DNA from: a virus
DNA length: 64,000 nt
Virus genome (UHGV): UHGV-1380027
Strand: one strand, 5' to 3'
Shown: piece by piece, positions 32,637-53,639 of the stretch
Layout of the letters: each line of letters starts with the position of its first letter
How positions within the stretch are numbered: the first letter of the stretch is position 1
Position numbers and translations under genes: made by a program
The notes under the pieces: model-generated
Databases searched by the model: none
Seen by the model: the letters and a program-made list of their open reading frames with translations, nothing else
Told to the model about the DNA's origin: nothing

Positions 32637-33548
32637 TTATTTTCCGTTAACTTTGTTGTAGTTTCCCTGCTCAGATGGGACTATGGTAGAAGGTCTTCCA
32701 TATTCCTGATAGTACCAATCCGCAGCAGATTGGGTGACACCGTTTTCATCTGTCCACATCATAGATTTGTATGGCTGCCACTCTTCTGCGGCATTTGTGG
32801 ATGCAGTGTCTGCAAATGCCCCTGTGTCCCTCTTGTTACCTACGTTACTGCCATTCTTACAGTCGTTGACAGCACCTTTTTGCTGGGTCTTGCCTACTTT
32901 CTTAGGGTTGCTGTATACAGTTGCATTAACAACCTTGTTCAAGTAGAATGTGCGGAACTCTGTAAGTTCTACATCAAACACCATCGCAGCACCTTCACCA
33001 ACAGACTTGTTGGCAGAAAGGCTGGTTATAATGTAGTTCTCAAGGAGTCTTTCCTCGGTAACCAAAGAAACCAACTGGCGCTTATTAATGATCTCAGTCA
33101 AAGCCTCCAGTGCAGCGCCTGGTCGCATAGATGCTGCAGGATTTTTAGAGTCAGTATTCCTGTCAATGTAGTTTTGCTCATAGATTATATGTGGTGATGT
33201 ATTTACCCTACCAGTAAAAGAAAATACACCATCTTTAATTACAGCGTGGTCTGACAGGGTAGATTTATCTTCCACCGCAAACCCAGTTTTATCAACAGAA
33301 TGTTTGAAAGAGTAGTTCTCAACCTGATCGAAGATAATGGCAAGATCGTTAGTAAAGTTTTTACCCTTCATCTCTATATTGCGACCACCATAGTTAAGAC
33401 CGCTGACAAACATAGTGTACTTTACATCGCTTTCAGTTTGCTGCTCTGCCTTTTCAGCCTTTGGAGATTTAACCTCTTGAGGCTTGTACAGGTCTTTTTC
33501 ATCAACTATATTGCTTGGCATAACCTCTCCAGGACACTCCGATACCAT
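32637..33548 (-). CDS. tail protein (distal tail or DNA-circulation type by position)
   Basis: 303 aa, first gene after the tape measure gene. Confidence 0.3.
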   Translation of the reverse strand: MVSECPGEVMPSNIVDEKDLYKPQEVKSPKAEKAEQQTESDVKYTMFVSGLNYGGRNIEMKGKNFTNDLAIIFDQVENYSFKHSVDKTGFAVEDKSTLSDHAVIKDGVFSFTGRVNTSPHIIYEQNYIDRNTDSKNPAASMRPGAALEALTEIINKRQLVSLVTEERLLENYIITSLSANKSVGEGAAMVFDVELTEFRTFYLNKVVNATVYSNPKKVGKTQQKGAVNDCKNGSNVGNKRDTGAFADTASTNAAEEWQPYKSMMWTDENGVTQSAADWYYQEYGRPSTIVPSEQGNYNKVNGK

Positions 33549-39843: not shown

Positions 39844-40314
39844 TTACTGTCCAATTTTAAAGGTTGCAGATTCAAGCAGCACATCGTAATGCCGCATAGC
39901 CTCGTTGAAGCCCTTCTCTTGTGCCCACTGCTCACTAACAGTAGGGTTACTAAACTGACCAGCCTCAATAACAAACTGGATAGCTTTGGCCCCTGTGTCC
40001 CCCATCTGCCTAAGAACAGCCTCTGCACTTGATCCTCTAGCCATAGCTCTCAACAATTTTTCTGTCAAGGTCTGTAGTTGCGTGCTGTGAAATGCAAAGG
40101 CCGTCTCCATGAAATTGCGAACAGGCAGCCCGTTCCAACCGAAGTTGTGAATAGCTGCCAATGTTGCCATATTTAAGCCTGACGGGTGAGGTTCATCATA
40201 AAAGCCGTAGGTTATTGTTTTGCTTTCAAGTTTCACAAGGTCTTTATAAAAGCGATCTAAACGCTTTAGGTTGAACCTTGTTTGACATTTAACCTTTAGC
40301 ATTATATTCCTCAC
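39844..40314 (-). CDS. head completion / virion morphogenesis protein
   Basis: 156 aa; position only. Confidence 0.3.
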   Translation of the reverse strand: MRNIMLKVKCQTRFNLKRLDRFYKDLVKLESKTITYGFYDEPHPSGLNMATLAAIHNFGWNGLPVRNFMETAFAFHSTQLQTLTEKLLRAMARGSSAEAVLRQMGDTGAKAIQFVIEAGQFSNPTVSEQWAQEKGFNEAMRHYDVLLESATFKIGQ

Positions 40315-49209: not shown

Positions 49210-49286
49210 TGGTCTCCACGGAGTGATTCGAACACTCGACCTCCTGATCCCAAATCAGGCGCTCTACCAAGCTGAGCTACGCGGAG
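49210..49286 (-). tRNA. tRNA-Pro (anticodon TGG)
   Basis: Hand-folded cloverleaf: acceptor CTCCGCG/CGTGGAG (one G-U), T arm GAGTG-TTCGAAT-CACTC, anticodon loop TTTGGGA, encoded CCA. Confidence 0.7.
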
Positions 49287-49297
49287 TATTTATTATT

Positions 49298-49372
49298 TGG
49301 TGGCCCTGGGTGGAATTGAACCACCGTCTGGCGATTATGAGTCGCTTGCTTGAACCTTCCAGCTACAGGGCC
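49298..49372 (-). tRNA. tRNA-Met or Ile2 (anticodon CAT)
   Basis: Acceptor GGCCCTG/CAGGGCC, T arm GGTGG-TTCAATT-CCACC, anticodon loop CTCATAA, encoded CCA; CAT cannot distinguish Met from lysidine-modified Ile. Confidence 0.65.
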
Positions 49373-49373
49373 A

Positions 49374-49449
49374 TGGTGCTGATGGCAGGACTTGAACCTG
49401 CAACCTATTGATTACAAATCAATTGCACTGCCAATTGTGCTACATCAGC
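49374..49449 (-). tRNA. tRNA-Thr (anticodon TGT)
   Basis: Acceptor GCTGATG/CATCAGC, D stem GCAC/GTGC, anticodon stem ATTGA/TCAAT with loop TTTGTAA, T arm GCAGG-TTCAAGT-CCTGC, encoded CCA; 1-nt spacer from the previous tRNA. Confidence 0.75.
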
Positions 49450-49453
49450 AAAA

Positions 49454-49552
49454 GGTGCTAGGTGATGGAATCGAACCATCTATGTATTCAACGACTACCT
49501 CGTCTATTTTCAGGATTAAAAATCCTCGCCCTTGCCAAAGGGCTTACCTAGC
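49454..49552 (-). tRNA. atypical tRNA-like gene (about 99 nt; anticodon loop TTTTTAA, possibly TTT)
   Basis: Perfect 7-bp acceptor GCTAGGT/ACCTAGC, D arm GCCC-TTTGGCAA-GGGC, T arm GATGG-TTCGATT-CCATC, but about 31 nt between anticodon stem and T arm; no encoded CCA. Confidence 0.35.
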
Positions 49553-49650
49553 TCAGTATGTTGACCATGTTGCTAGTCGGCGATGACGACTGTAACATTT
49601 GATAATCCGGTTCTGCTTCCGGCTTTCGCTTAATTACAAGGTCAACAATA

Positions 49651-49741
49651 TGGCAGAGGATAATGGAATCGAACCATCATCGAGTCATCCTCAACGGGAC
49701 GGTTTTCAAGACCGCTTGAGCACCATTGCTCCCTACCCTCT
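49651..49741 (-). tRNA. tRNA-Ser (anticodon TGA)
   Basis: Acceptor AGAGGGT/ATCCTCT (one G-U), anticodon arm GCGGT-CTTGAAA-ACCGT as in bacterial tRNA-Ser, long variable arm, T loop TTCGATT, discriminator G, encoded CCA. Confidence 0.6.
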
Positions 49742-49855
49742 TTTATAAACAATACTGATAATGACACTGATTTTCGAGCAGTTAGTGACTAGTATAAACG
49801 ACGATAAATATCAATGCCATTATCTGTATGATTTATGCATTTAAAAATATAAATT

Positions 49856-49943
49856 TGGTGGTGAGTGATGGAGTCGAACCACCCGAATCGCAATGATAAC
49901 AGATTTACAGTCTGCCCCGCTACCCCTACGGAATTAACTCACC
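49856..49943 (-). tRNA. tRNA-Tyr (anticodon GTA)
   Basis: Acceptor GGTGAGT/ACTCACC, anticodon arm GCAGA-CTGTAAA-TCTGT, long variable arm, T arm GGTGG-TTCGACT-CCATC, encoded CCA. Confidence 0.7.
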
Positions 49944-50073
49944 TAAATACTAATATTTAAATTCTTTTTAAAATAGCTAGTGTTCTAACCACTAACTATG
50001 AGGTATCGGTAAAGTGGTTACCGCCACTTGCCGAAGATTTACTCTGCTAAAGTAAGCTACATTAAAAAGAACT

Positions 50074-50148
50074 TGGCACCCCGTACTGGACTCGAACCAG
50101 TGTCAACGGCTTAGAAGGCCGCTGCTTTATCCACTAAGCTAACAGGGC
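50074..50148 (-). tRNA. tRNA-Arg (anticodon TCT)
   Basis: Acceptor GCCCTGT/ACGGGGT (two G-U), D stem GCTT/AAGC, anticodon arm GCGGC-CTTCTAA-GCCGT, T arm ACTGG-TTCGAGT-CCAGT, encoded CCA. Confidence 0.65.
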
Positions 50149-50244: not shown

Positions 50245-50583
50245 TTAACTATTGCCAACAGGCTGTATTTCTGTGGTAAATGGCATAAAAGGTGCTGGTT
50301 TTTCAGCCTCTTCCACTACCACCTCTTCCTCTTCACCAAACATCTCATCATATTCTTCCTGCATTCGGTCTGCCTTATCAAGAACATACTCTGCAATGCT
50401 TTGACGAATATTTTGTTTGGTTTTCGGGTCCAACATCAGCTCTCTTAAAACTTTGTGAGCTTCTGGAACCATCGCTATAAAAGATTCCTTCATATCAAGA
50501 ATGTTCTTCTCTAGCTGAATGGCGTTGGACTCCTCTTTCAGAGGTCTGCCTCTACGGCGACGCTTTTTAGTTGTATCCGCCAT
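50245..50583 (-). CDS. small protein with basic N-terminus and acidic C-terminus
   Basis: Start trimmed to an internal ATG (50581-50583) preceded by RBS GGAGGAAAC; N-terminus KKRRRRGRPLKEE, C-terminus EEEEVVVEEAE; the listed longer ORF runs into a non-coding GC-rich island. Confidence 0.4.
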   Translation of the reverse strand: MADTTKKRRRRGRPLKEESNAIQLEKNILDMKESFIAMVPEAHKVLRELMLDPKTKQNIRQSIAEYVLDKADRMQEEYDEMFGEEEEVVVEEAEKPAPFMPFTTEIQPVGNS

Positions 50584-50928
50584 GTTTCCTCCATTATCAC
50601 GTGATAGGTGGATTTTATCACGGCAAATACTGATTGTCAAGTTCGCCGCAGGGTGGTATTCCCTGCGACTTGCCCAGCGTCCTGGACCAGCAAGACCCAA
50701 CAAGTGGGTTACCAGATACCCATTACCGCGCTCTGGCTCGACCTTATTACAGGTTGGCTGGGGTCACATCGTCATGTGCTGGCTGCCCCTACCATTTTAA
50801 GTGTGGTGCACTATCAAGCCCTCTAAGGGGAACTCAGCCTTCTCCGAACCCTGTTTCAAAGCATCCGGAGATAAAGCCATCAAACTCATCTTTAAATTGG
50901 ATATTCATCATGATACACGAAAACAACC

Positions 50929-51171
50929 TCATTGTAAAGCACAAATAAATAAAACATACTTAATTTGTTTGTTATCAGGCTCAGGGTAGAAGTAGAAGAT
51001 CTTGCTATCACCGATCTGAACACCACCATCCCAACAGCATAACCCATAACCAGTATTCATACAAGCTAAGTCGTTGGCAAAATCTATTGCATCATCTAGT
51101 GCACGAAATTCACCTTCATCTTCTAAATAATCCTCATTCATGGAACGGAAAACGAGCTTAACCTTAAACAT
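50929..51171 (-). CDS. hypothetical protein
   Basis: 80 aa, co-oriented ORF. Confidence 0.3.
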   Translation of the reverse strand: MFKVKLVFRSMNEDYLEDEGEFRALDDAIDFANDLACMNTGYGLCCWDGGVQIGDSKIFYFYPEPDNKQIKYVLFICALQ

Positions 51172-51247
51172 AGCATTACCTGTAGACCTCGTAAGTTAAA
51201 ATTGTATCACATCATATTGCAGATCTTATCAGGTAACATTATTTTTG

Positions 51248-51436
51248 TCAACAGATTCCGGCCTTATCCCTCCTGTCTGCGTATTCTTTAATCGCAACCT
51301 CACCTGCATTGGTAACCAGATCTTCAAAGTAATTCTCAAGCTCCTCGTCAATGTCCGGTGACCAGCTCTTTTTCCTGTCAGTGTGAATTGCAGACTTGTT
51401 GAACTTATTACAATTCTTTGCTACCGGATTGTTCAT
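51248..51436 (-). CDS. hypothetical protein
   Basis: 62 aa, co-oriented ORF. Confidence 0.25.
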   Translation of the reverse strand: MNNPVAKNCNKFNKSAIHTDRKKSWSPDIDEELENYFEDLVTNAGEVAIKEYADRRDKAGIC

Positions 51437-51446
51437 TAAGCTCTCC

Positions 51447-52025
51447 TCAACGTTCGTAGTAAATCTTATTCAACATTACCTCATCGTTTGCAGAAAGGAT
51501 ATCAAGATATGCATCACCAAATCTGCCTGCAACAACCTCTGCATGATACATCACTTCGTTAACATCGTCAAGAGTGATAACCGGATGACCATATCTTTCT
51601 GAATATTGTCTCAGTGTGCGATGTAACGAGTCGTCATCATATGCAGACTTTTTAATATCACAAACACGACGAATGGCCTTGATGTCGAAAAAACCTGTGC
51701 GATACCACCCAAGAAAAAAGTTCCGTGTAGTGTCAACATCTACACCAATACCATTAAGAACCTTATCTACAAGATAGCTGTCATCCTTTGGACTAGCGTC
51801 CTTAGTGCGAATGTAGTTGCCATCTTTTCCAGGTGATAGCTCCTTCTCATCACCAACCTGCATGCCATCATTTGGCGGTGTTAGCCACTTATCAGGATGC
51901 TTACGATCACGAGCGTTAGAATGATTACGCTGGAAACCTGGCTTCCACTTGAAAGTTTTCTCCATCTGTTCTTCATTCTGATAACGTTTTGCAATCTTTT
52001 CACTGGCATCTTTGCGTGAACTCAT
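51447..52025 (-). CDS. hypothetical protein
   Basis: 192 aa, charged; first gene downstream of the origin-like region. Confidence 0.35.
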   Translation of the reverse strand: MSSRKDASEKIAKRYQNEEQMEKTFKWKPGFQRNHSNARDRKHPDKWLTPPNDGMQVGDEKELSPGKDGNYIRTKDASPKDDSYLVDKVLNGIGVDVDTTRNFFLGWYRTGFFDIKAIRRVCDIKKSAYDDDSLHRTLRQYSERYGHPVITLDDVNEVMYHAEVVAGRFGDAYLDILSANDEVMLNKIYYER

Positions 52026-52529
52026 AGCAGACTCCTCTTCAAGTTATAGAAAAACTCACTGTATCGCTTTGTAACGAGCTTTTCTATCAAACTGGTGCGA
52101 TTGCCTTACTTGGTATAGTTTATATAGCTGTGGAGCGATTTAGGGGCCTTCTTGTCAGTTTCCACACATAAACTTTATCCGAACTCGCGCGGGAGGCTCT
52201 CAACCGACTCCTTCCGGCGCTGGCAAGCTTTCGTCGGTGGTCCACATTAGTGCTCGGCCTTTGGCCTGCGCTATCGCTTCGCTCCCACACATGTTAACAG
52301 TCCTGCATGTATGCACTTCTGTTATTGTGTGCACTATGGAGGCCCGGCATCTCGCCCCTCGTAGGCGAGTGCCAATGAAGGGCCGACACTACCCATAATA
52401 AGTAATAAATTTAAAACATGGTACTTAGGATCTAGTATATTCTACATAAGTTAAGTATATGTACTTTAGTACCATAAGTACTAGATCTTTTATTTTTTAT
52501 TATTTAGTTATTTTAGTTATATTCTTTAT

Positions 52530-52612
52530 GTGTCCGTATCACGGACAGTTAGTGTCCGTATTACGGGCAGATGTGTCCGCGTGACGGACAGTAGTGTCCG
52601 TATCACGGACAG
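52530..52612. repeat. four tandem 19-bp palindromic iteron/operator units
   Basis: GTGTCCGTATCACGGACAG at 52530 and 52594 (perfect 7-bp arms TGTCCGT/ACGGACA), one-mismatch variants at 52552 and 52573; 21-22 bp phasing. Confidence 0.8.
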
Positions 52613-52686
52613 TTACTAACTTCTGTTCCAGAGTGAACATAAAACATACAAATCCTTATAGTACAGATGTTTAAGTTTTTACTGGT

Positions 52687-53037
52687 CTAACCAGTTGTTG
52701 ACATTCGAATAACTTCTTCTGGTGGCAAAACTTTGGAAAATGTGCATCTTTTACCTCTCCCTTGTGTGGATATTTCAACCACTCCTGCACATTCTAAAGT
52801 TTTAACGCACGCTGCTGCTTTTGTTTTCTTTATCCCAACATCTGCTGCAATTTTCCTTGTGCTGGGTGTGAAGCGTGAATTTTCTCCAAGCTTATACCAG
52901 TTGTGCAGGTAGCAGTATACGATCTTGTCATATAAGTCAAGAACAACAACCTCCCCAGTTGTGTCATTCAAAACTTTTGACATAGACAGTATTTCAAGGG
53001 GGACTTTAAGATATAGCAGCTTATCCCCATCTTTCAT
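52687..53037 (-). CDS. small helix-turn-helix DNA-binding protein
   Basis: 116 aa; segment TRKIAADVGIKKTKAAACVKTLECAGVV resembles a helix-turn-helix; gene ends 75 bp from the palindrome array. Confidence 0.35.
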   Translation of the reverse strand: MKDGDKLLYLKVPLEILSMSKVLNDTTGEVVVLDLYDKIVYCYLHNWYKLGENSRFTPSTRKIAADVGIKKTKAAACVKTLECAGVVEISTQGRGKRCTFSKVLPPEEVIRMSTTG

Positions 53038-53084
53038 ATCTCCTGATTCTCCTTGTGTGGCAATTTTCTTTAAAATAGCAGGGA

Positions 53085-53639
53085 TTACTCCCCGCTGTCA
53101 ATAGCAAGACTCATTGCAATACGGTATGCCTCTTCTAATGGTAAGAGTCTCCCCCACACATCCCAACCGACATCAAACTGCCTGCCAAACAACTGCTGTG
53201 TGGTTCCGTGAGCATGACCGAACAGTTGGACTGATCCGTGAGGCTTTCTGTTCCACTTTGCAAACTGGTAATGGCTCATACAGATCAAATTCTTGTTGTG
53301 GCGAAGCTCGTAATAATCTACAACCTCATGACCGAACTCTTTCATAATTCTGACAGTCGTCCTTGTGTCATGGTTACCACGAACAAGAATAATATGTCCG
53401 TTCAACATATTTAGAACATCTGGAAGCAATTTGTTGATATTCTTATCATTAGTGCACGCAATATCCCCCAAGTGAAACACAGTGTCTGCAGGTGACACAA
53501 CAGAGTTCCACTTGGTGATGATTCCCGCATTCATACTGTCAAGATTGTGATCATACTGAGATCTGTGTTTTTGACATGAGTCGAACTCCATTACCCGCTG
53601 GTGGAGAAAGTGTGTGTCGCTTGTTACAAAGTATTTCAT
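53085..53639 (-). CDS. calcineurin-like metallophosphoesterase
   Basis: Motifs SDTHF (DxH), GDIACTNDKN (GDxxDxG-like), LVRGNHD (GNHD/E), GHAHG; start trimmed to internal ATG 53637-53639 that matches motif spacing. Confidence 0.6.
   Translation of the reverse strand: MKYFVTSDTHFLHQRVMEFDSCQKHRSQYDHNLDSMNAGIITKWNSVVSPADTVFHLGDIACTNDKNINKLLPDVLNMLNGHIILVRGNHDTRTTVRIMKEFGHEVVDYYELRHNKNLICMSHYQFAKWNRKPHGSVQLFGHAHGTTQQLFGRQFDVGWDVWGRLLPLEEAYRIAMSLAIDSGE

Follow-up and report, generated by a model that had tools for sequence, protein, structure and literature searches.

A selectively maintained non-coding element with two covarying hairpins lies beside a putative replication origin in Vequintaviruses

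In ori-lambda, four iterons are followed by an AT-rich tract and then by a palindrome, and in the oriV of RK2 and RSF1010 GC-rich segments lie beside the AT tract. Hairpins recognised by the primase or the primosome are known from the single-strand initiation (ssi) signals and primosome sites, such as G4 oric, the phiX174 primosome assembly site (pas) and ssiA/ssiB of RSF1010, in which structure and loop bases, not the stem sequence, are read; these signals are functionally defined and can be common to unrelated replicons. Here we analysed a 64,000-nucleotide stretch of the virus genome UHGV-1380027 (hereafter the window) and, within it, a GC-rich island at 52130-52390. We found that the island is a real, unannotated and selectively maintained non-coding element, whose two hairpins, H1 and H2, show compensatory changes in their stems and invariant loops. 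Our preferred reading, to which we assign a probability of roughly 40%, is that the island is a hairpin module flanking a lambda/oriC-like origin and recognised through these loops.

Judged from sequence identity, the window belongs to a Vequintavirus, that is, an rV5/FV3-like coliphage. Over 50500-52700 it shares 99.9% identity with Escherichia phage vB_EcoM-ECP26 and at least 90% with about 120 Vequintavirus records (rV5, FV3, Murica and others), and the phage matches of the island in blastn are Vequintaviruses only. Eighteen records named 'Campylobacter phage' (MG0656xx) are at least 95% identical to E. coli Vequintaviruses here, and their host label seems doubtful.

The initial annotation, made from the letters of the window alone, had described the island as much more GC-rich than its surroundings and as containing no open reading frame (ORF) of 60 amino acids (aa) or more, and our data bear out both statements. 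The GC content of the island is 0.563 against a window mean of 0.441 (standard deviation 0.032; z = 3.75), the highest of all 261-bp windows in the 64 kb. No ORF of at least 60 aa overlaps it, the longest within it being 56 aa (52120-52290, minus strand) and 53 aa (52237-52398, plus strand); most records annotate nothing here, and a few carry two tiny hypothetical coding sequences (CDS). The island lies where it had been placed, between a 192-aa gene (51447-52025, minus strand) and an AT-rich tract (GC 0.32, 52400-52599). Both quoted inverted repeats were also found, GGCCTTTGGCC at 52256-52266 and GGCATCTCGCC/CCTCGTA/GGCGAGTGCC at 52346-52373; the second ends at 52373, so that its end had been given 2 nt short, and it forms the inner part of H2. 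The parts of the island, and one structure next to it, are the following, where the phage-lineage sequences are the 15 that we aligned (11 from records and 4 from metagenomes):

52139-52387, unstranded: conserved GC-rich non-coding core, TTTAGGGGC ... GGCCGAC, 90-100% identical in 119 Vequintavirus records
52187-52199, unstranded: left flank of H1, GCGCGGGAGGCTC, conserved in phages and plasmids
52203-52238, unstranded: hairpin H1, stem ACCGAC (52203-52208)/GTCGGT (52233-52238) with the 24-nt loop TCCTTCCGGCGCTGGCAAGCTTTC (52209-52232)
52241-52247, unstranded: right flank of H1, TCCACAT, conserved in phages and plasmids
52256-52266, unstranded: small hairpin GGCC-TTT-GGCC, invariant in 15 of 15 phage-lineage sequences
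52295-52324, unstranded: variable hairpin H3, TAACAG ... CTGTTA with the inner TGCA-TGTA-TGCA, dispensable
52341-52384, unstranded: hairpin H2, pairing GGCCC/GGGCC, GGCA/TGCC and CTCGCC/GGCGAG, with the loop CCTCGTA and the internal loop AATGAA
52042-52093, minus strand: conserved hairpin within the leader that precedes the 192-aa gene, lying between this gene and the island (fold z = -2.5), kept in the IMG/VR lineage

Within the alignment the core shows 1-nt indels in V18, phita32 and Alma. A6-1 and Pr121LW lack 18 nt (52308-52325), and Pr121LW lacks a further 3 nt; insertions of 3 nt and 1 nt occur in the most divergent lineage, IMGVR_UViG_3300010279_000001 (the IMG/VR lineage). Between the window and this lineage the core is 87% identical (216/248), whereas identity in the adjacent 192-aa gene drops to 61% at fourfold-degenerate sites and to 66% over third positions, and the sequence to the right of the island can no longer be aligned. 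The core thus evolves about three times more slowly than the fourfold-degenerate sites of the neighbouring gene, and we conclude that it is non-coding and under purifying selection. With a custom covariance model of the island, the window yields one copy only.

When compared with E. coli genomes by blastn, the island gave no chromosomal match and matched unannotated DNA of small circular plasmids of about 13 kb; a host origin of the island was rejected on this ground. Phage and plasmids share two blocks, 52186-52252 and 52338-52390, at 85-87% identity, and these blocks contain H1 and H2. In the plasmids the H1 stem reads GCTGCC/GGCAGC, with three of the six pairs changed on both sides and all still Watson-Crick, while the loop TCCTTCCGGCGCTGGCAAGCTTTC, one C/A polymorphism (TTCCGG/TTACGG) aside, does not differ among the phage lineages and six of the seven plasmid-type sequences compared. 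H2 in plasmid NZ_CP020521 has GTCA/TGAC and CTCTCC/GGAGAG, that is, two compensatory pairs. The search for compensatory changes among relatives that had been proposed for this island was therefore positive for both hairpins, with three pairs in H1 and two in H2. In alignment A1, 95.7% of the cells pair and six pairs are changed on both sides; the covariation score was reached by none of 500 shuffles and falls to 0 when the partners are slid by 1-3 columns. The 44 nt of H2 fold at -28.1 kcal/mol on either strand (z = -3.4 on the plus and -3.0 on the minus strand). H1 and H2 are thus real conserved hairpins, and their covariation is equally compatible with RNA or with hairpins in unwound DNA.

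The remaining structures of the island are of a different kind. The small GGCC-TTT-GGCC hairpin does not covary and is therefore neither supported nor refuted. The interval of H3 is deleted (52308-52325) in A6-1 and Pr121LW and occupied by other hairpin modules in the plasmids. On the minus strand, 52276-52282 reads GCGAAGC, altered to ACGAAGC in Aya and to GCAAAGC in the IMG/VR lineage; this is an exact copy of d(GCGAAGC), an unusually stable DNA mini-hairpin reported from some phage origins.

The island had also been proposed as a structured RNA with extensive hairpin potential. This holds for the local hairpins H1 and H2, and fails for a single extensive fold. The whole island folds only moderately better than shuffled sequences (z = -2.8 on the plus and -2.5 on the minus strand), the minimum-free-energy folds of the whole core are contradicted on either strand by natural variants, in which 26-32 of the 30-36 varying pairs become non-canonical, and RNAalifold returned no coherent consensus from the island alignment. 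Since whole-core folds are contradicted and local hairpins supported, the element is best described as a series of local hairpins whose loops and linkers are conserved. The suggested covariance-model scan was negative: the island belongs to no family of Rfam 15 (4227 covariance models), and only tRNAs pass the gathering threshold in the window. A permissive scan of 50400-52700 gave only a sub-threshold hit to rli43 (24.6 vs 100 bits), mostly in the AT tract, and Rfam detects nothing on the plasmid.

The element belongs to a narrow family, made up of a single genus of phages and a single family of plasmids. Relatives sought in IMG/VR with three DNA patterns and one protein anchor amounted to one contig, a metagenome scan gave four phage-like and two plasmid-like contigs with the remaining matches attributable to chance, no relative of the island was found in species-representative genomes, and both flanking proteins are confined to the Vequintavirus genus in tblastn. 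Few lineages therefore stand behind the covariation, and the small number of independent events limits our confidence in it.

To the right of the island lie the elements that make up the putative origin:

52395-52529, unstranded: AT-rich tract (GC 0.32) with an oriC-type 13-mer
52530-52615, unstranded: four iteron- or operator-like repeats of 21-22 bp, each with the palindrome TGTCCGT-N3-ACGGACA
52687-53037, minus strand: 116-aa winged-helix protein (Pfam HTH_36/DUF6945; PHROG 12838, 'replication initiation protein')

The 13-mer, GATCTTTTATTTT at 52484-52496 (plus strand), matches the oriC 13-mer consensus exactly and is the sole exact GATCTnTTnTTTT match in the 64 kb. The repeat copies start at 52530, 52552, 52573 and 52594, so that the locus has two features of an iteron-type origin, namely at least three direct repeats at about two helical turns and an adjoining AT-rich unwinding element. 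The 116-aa protein has a further weak match to PHROG 8102 and none in NCBIfam, and many records label it a transcriptional regulator. The rV5 genome paper could not define a replication origin from skew (PMC3606486).

Comparison between lineages shows that the island keeps its place while the repeats beside it are exchanged. In the IMG/VR lineage (IMGVR_UViG_3300010279_000001, 1955-2770), the phage repeats are replaced by unrelated AAATCTGATGCA repeats, the helix-turn-helix (HTH) gene by one for a non-homologous 143-aa HTH protein and the AT tract by an unrelated pyrimidine-rich tract, and the island and the flanking genes persist. The plasmids have first the hairpin modules, then the 13-mer-like GATCTATTAATTT and then iterons. 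The order of island, AT-rich tract and repeats, with the same polarity, thus recurs in three lineages with unrelated repeats, and H1 is found together with three types of iteron in the plasmids and two types of repeat in the phages, its side and orientation being the same throughout. Since H1 accompanies at least five repeat types, it is independent of initiator specificity, and its constant side and orientation favour an initiator-independent role at the flank of the origin.

On the basis of these findings, we propose that the island forms the left flank of a putative origin made of the AT-rich unwinding tract with its 13-mer, the four repeats and the gene of the small winged-helix candidate initiator. 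H1 and H2 would be its working parts, in which the stems may vary as long as pairing persists and the loops are fixed. Opening of the AT-rich tract, or transcription, would allow the hairpins to form in single-stranded nucleic acid, and the loops might then be bound by a factor independent of initiator and iteron specificity, possibly a replication protein of the host or the phage, for instance a primase, a helicase loader or the primosome. Binding would either mark the start of replication priming or loading, or modulate the firing of the origin.

Several observations weigh against this proposal. Four palindromes upstream of a small HTH gene would fit equally well the operators of an autoregulated repressor. 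H1 is thermodynamically unremarkable (z about 0), and at 250 bp the island is longer than one would expect of a priming or loading signal. The DnaA box TTWTNCACA occurs seven times in the window and not once in 52139-52387, so that a cluster of DnaA boxes in the island was rejected. Plasmid CP134895 lacks both H1 and H2, and the hairpins are therefore not essential for plasmid replication. Finally, three plasmid types have a terminator-like hairpin and some 60-100 nt between the module and the AT-rich box, an arrangement that resembles the end of a transcript.

The main rival explanation, which we hold to be possible and somewhat less probable, is that the island specifies a small structured RNA, either independent or released from a longer transcript by processing, with a trans-acting or regulatory role and with the H1 and H2 loops as its interaction surfaces, for instance in kissing loops or for protein binding; in the plasmids, related modular RNA arrays would control their own genes or mediate cross-talk with phages. 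Stems that covary around invariant loops are the classic signature of an RNA, a GC-rich patch in a genome of 44% GC is comparable to the tRNA region, and the shuffling of modules among plasmids resembles that of antisense-RNA specificity determinants. Transcription signals speak on both sides. An extended -10 element, TGGTATAGT (52111-52119, plus strand), lies just upstream in most Vequintaviruses but Aya and IMG/VR, the two phage lineages that diverge most, have lost it, and we found no convincing or conserved sigma-70-type promoters bracketing the island in the phage. On the plus strand, the module is succeeded by terminator-like hairpins in three plasmid types, in which the array is bracketed by a weak plus-strand promoter (TTGTCA-16-AATTAT) and a terminator with an 11-bp stem and a U tract, and in the IMG/VR lineage, in which a hairpin with a U-rich tail stands just past H2. 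In the window, however, H2 is followed by GACACTACCC and there is no intrinsic terminator on either strand of 50400-53100. The small-RNA explanation is further weakened by the lack of an Rfam match at any threshold, of a supported global fold and of any complement of at least 9 nt to the H1 loop in the window or the plasmid. The strand is also in conflict, since two changes within the phage lineage, GTCGGT to GTCGGC in H1 and CTGTTA to CTGTCA in H3, give G.U pairs on the minus strand and A.C on the plus strand, whereas the plasmid features favour the plus strand. The same wobble pairs would suit a cis-acting RNA, either a structured 5' leader or an internal element of a long leftward unit with the 192-aa gene, small genes and tRNAs, serving as a put/nut-like site or in mRNA processing or stability. 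The neighbouring genes and tRNAs all lie on the minus strand and no terminator separates the HTH gene from the 192-aa gene; by default, the island is thus expected to be read through on the minus strand. Immediately left of the module, moreover, a leftward operon starts in phage and plasmids alike. We nevertheless consider this explanation rather unlikely, because in the plasmids strong leftward promoters (TTGACA-17-TAAGAT and TTGACA-17-TAAAAT) stand between module and operon, which places the module outside that leader, and because we found neither a promoter for a leftward transcript in the AT-rich tract nor a demonstrable known antitermination motif.

Explanations at the level of double-stranded DNA or protein are less probable still. 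If the inverted repeats bound dimeric proteins, as operators or accessory origin sites do, symmetric changes in the half-sites would mimic stem covariation; other protein-binding repeats adjoin the island, and the motif YCCACACA is enriched in the window (14 occurrences, 11 of them on the plus strand, against 5.8 expected), twice present in the island and repeated in the plasmid modules. Conservation is however the reverse of that in operators, the half-sites varying around an invariant 24-bp spacer, the bulge and asymmetric internal loop of H2 are typical of folded single strands, and the island has no strict DnaA box; we therefore judge this improbable. That the island encodes one or two very small proteins has in its favour the ORFs of 31-56 aa and the two small CDS that some records annotate here, and a plus-strand frame open for 78-91 codons in several lineages including IMG/VR. 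The longest open frame (plus strand, 84 codons) is nonetheless interrupted by a stop in Aya and frameshifted in V18, phita32 and Alma, a frame of this length has an estimated chance of about 0.2 over six frames from base composition at 56% GC, and a Pfam search gave no match. All six H1 stem substitutions between phage and plasmid are non-synonymous in the open frames, and none falls in the 24-nt loop. As no frame is preserved in these relatives or conserved with the plasmid copy, we rejected the protein-coding reading, which we regard as very improbable. A packaging (pac) or terminal site common to a satellite plasmid and its helper phage would account for the island blocks being the sole nucleotide-level similarity found between plasmid non-coding DNA and Vequintaviruses. 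This idea is largely refuted and was rejected on account of the distant virion ends: Gotham, a Vequintavirus, has defined ends that bear direct terminal repeats of 459 bp (PMC7471380). We checked that this repeat is identical at both ends of the record; it lies about 96 kb and 41 kb from the island, falls outside the window and has no similarity to the plasmids. YCCACACA recurs both as a linker between the plasmid hairpin modules and in the Gotham terminal repeat. A second motif considered as a phage promoter, ATTTAGRGG, is not enriched.

The plasmids that share the hairpins form a family of E. coli replicons of 13.2-13.9 kb with genes for a major capsid protein, a baseplate and a tape measure, and no annotated terminase:

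NZ_CP020521.1 (13,689 bp, circular), CP148565.1, NZ_CP035869.1, CP134895.1 and NZ_CP178698.1: members of the family
NZ_CP043822.1 (39.6 kb, with three matches to the island block) and the metagenome contigs L132 and L152: also grouped with the family

Some of their capsid and tail proteins are 48-57% identical to products of window genes (32835-33371 and 39874-40215), and they encode a 303-aa winged-helix protein with a weak match to O-like initiators, along with iterons. The iterons differ among plasmids, and the iteron region of CP134895.1 (2728-2786) shares 80-82% identity with the replication origin of P22, which lies within gene 18. Backbones that are nearly identical in other respects carry reshuffled sets of hairpin modules. 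In NZ_CP020521, H2 was brought in by an insertion, together with three direct repeats and an AT-rich tract. Three plasmid types have another hairpin, terminator-like, in the place of H2, and CP134895 keeps the flanks GCGCGGGAGACTC ... TCCACAT around a different hairpin (GTCCGGAT/ATCCGGAC). No match to the phage collection was found for the remaining plasmid non-coding DNA, including about 1.2 kb without an annotated gene (NZ_CP020521 13560-13689 and 1-1250) that is near-identical in four plasmids with differing neighbours. We found no relatives of the plasmid capsid protein in 185,579 species-representative genomes and no papers on this 13-kb family.

These plasmids look like satellites or miniature relatives of rV5-like phages. 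This suggests the speculative, and in our view unlikely, possibility that a virulent rV5-like phage and the satellite-like plasmids trade H1 and H2 as interchangeable recognition modules, in the form of RNA or of single-stranded DNA. Through the invariant loops, a plasmid might plug into a factor of the helper phage or the host and thus sense or exploit infection, for replication or for the timing of gene expression, or the phage might interfere with the plasmid. If true, this would be a new type of helper-satellite interface at the level of nucleic acids, in a phage genus without known satellites.

The initial annotation had pointed to a motif, GTGTGCACTAT (52327-52337), shared with a second island at 50585-50930. 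The motif is present in both, and it is the sole similarity between them; at 12 of 13 matching positions (BLAST E = 0.48) it is attributable to chance, and since the custom covariance model has no match in the second island, homology between the two was rejected. The second island contains at 50717-50761 a 45-nt sequence, TACCCATTACCGCGCTCTGGCTCGACCTTATTACAGGTTGGCTGG, which matches, at 89-96% identity, an intergenic segment present in over 500 T4-like phages, located in T4 between denV and the next leftward gene and in T2 in the gap before ipIV; it is a conserved non-coding piece common to two unrelated coliphage groups. Near-consensus sigma-70 promoters with an extended -10, TTGACA-17-TAAAAT and TTGACA-17-TAAGAT, occur in the phage at 50612-50640, inside the second island, and at 51223-51251 (both minus strand). 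The same two hexamer pairs precede the leftward operon of the plasmid (NZ_CP020521, 11869-11897 and 12060-12088, both minus strand). Further left, the tRNA cluster (49210-50148) includes at 49454-49552 (minus strand) an aberrant tRNA-like gene of 99 nt for which ARAGORN calls a 4-base anticodon ('tRNA-???'; Rfam 37.5 bits), annotated tRNA-OTHER in phage pangalan. A second tRNA at 49859-49943 (minus strand), Tyr in the annotation of relatives, is detected by Rfam and not by ARAGORN.

Vequintaviruses are widely used as therapeutic and biocontrol coliphages. The island provides a concrete, mutable target beside the best origin candidate, and if its loops prove to be sites for replication or transcription factors, it would represent a new class of cis-element, able to move among replicons whose initiators differ. 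Of the side results, the plasmid family is the most interesting: with its Vequintavirus-like capsid and tail genes, its similarity to the phages points to an unstudied phage-plasmid, possibly helper-satellite, relationship.

Among known systems, the small stable RNAs of the T4 tRNA region (species 1 and 2, rnaC/rnaD), to which the island had at the outset been likened, are also non-coding, GC-richer than the genome and part of the same broad leftward unit as the tRNA cluster. Here, in contrast, 2 kb and four ORFs (of 112, 80, 62 and 192 aa) separate the island from the tRNAs, ARAGORN and the Rfam tRNA model detect nothing inside it, and it has no T4-like counterpart; the analogy was not sustained. 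The nut sites of lambda and the put sites of HK022 also comprise two stem-loops, which in their case act in cis in the leader of an early operon, although no similarity to boxA/boxB or put was shown and the plasmid operon promoters lie downstream of the module. Comparable, too, are the C4 RNA of P1/P7 and the CI RNA of P4 (Rfam C4 family), antisense or immunity RNAs of phage and satellite replicons whose hairpins have functional loops and whose specificity changes through hairpin swaps; the island, in contrast, has no Rfam match, identified target or defined transcript.

The origin-associated systems bear on our preferred reading of the island as an origin-flanking hairpin module. No sequence similarity to the ssi and primosome hairpins was detected, but these too are hairpins near an origin that are present in unrelated replicons. 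Unlike the iteron origins, the phage origin is putative, and the island is about 250 bp long, with at least two distinct hairpins and long invariant loops, and without sequence similarity to lambda or P22. Like them, it combines with repeats and an AT-rich tract a GC-rich palindromic segment on the far side, which is independent of the initiator and, in those origins, of poorly understood function. Moreover, the exchange of modules around the island in the IMG/VR lineage resembles the O/ori swaps of lambdoid phages.

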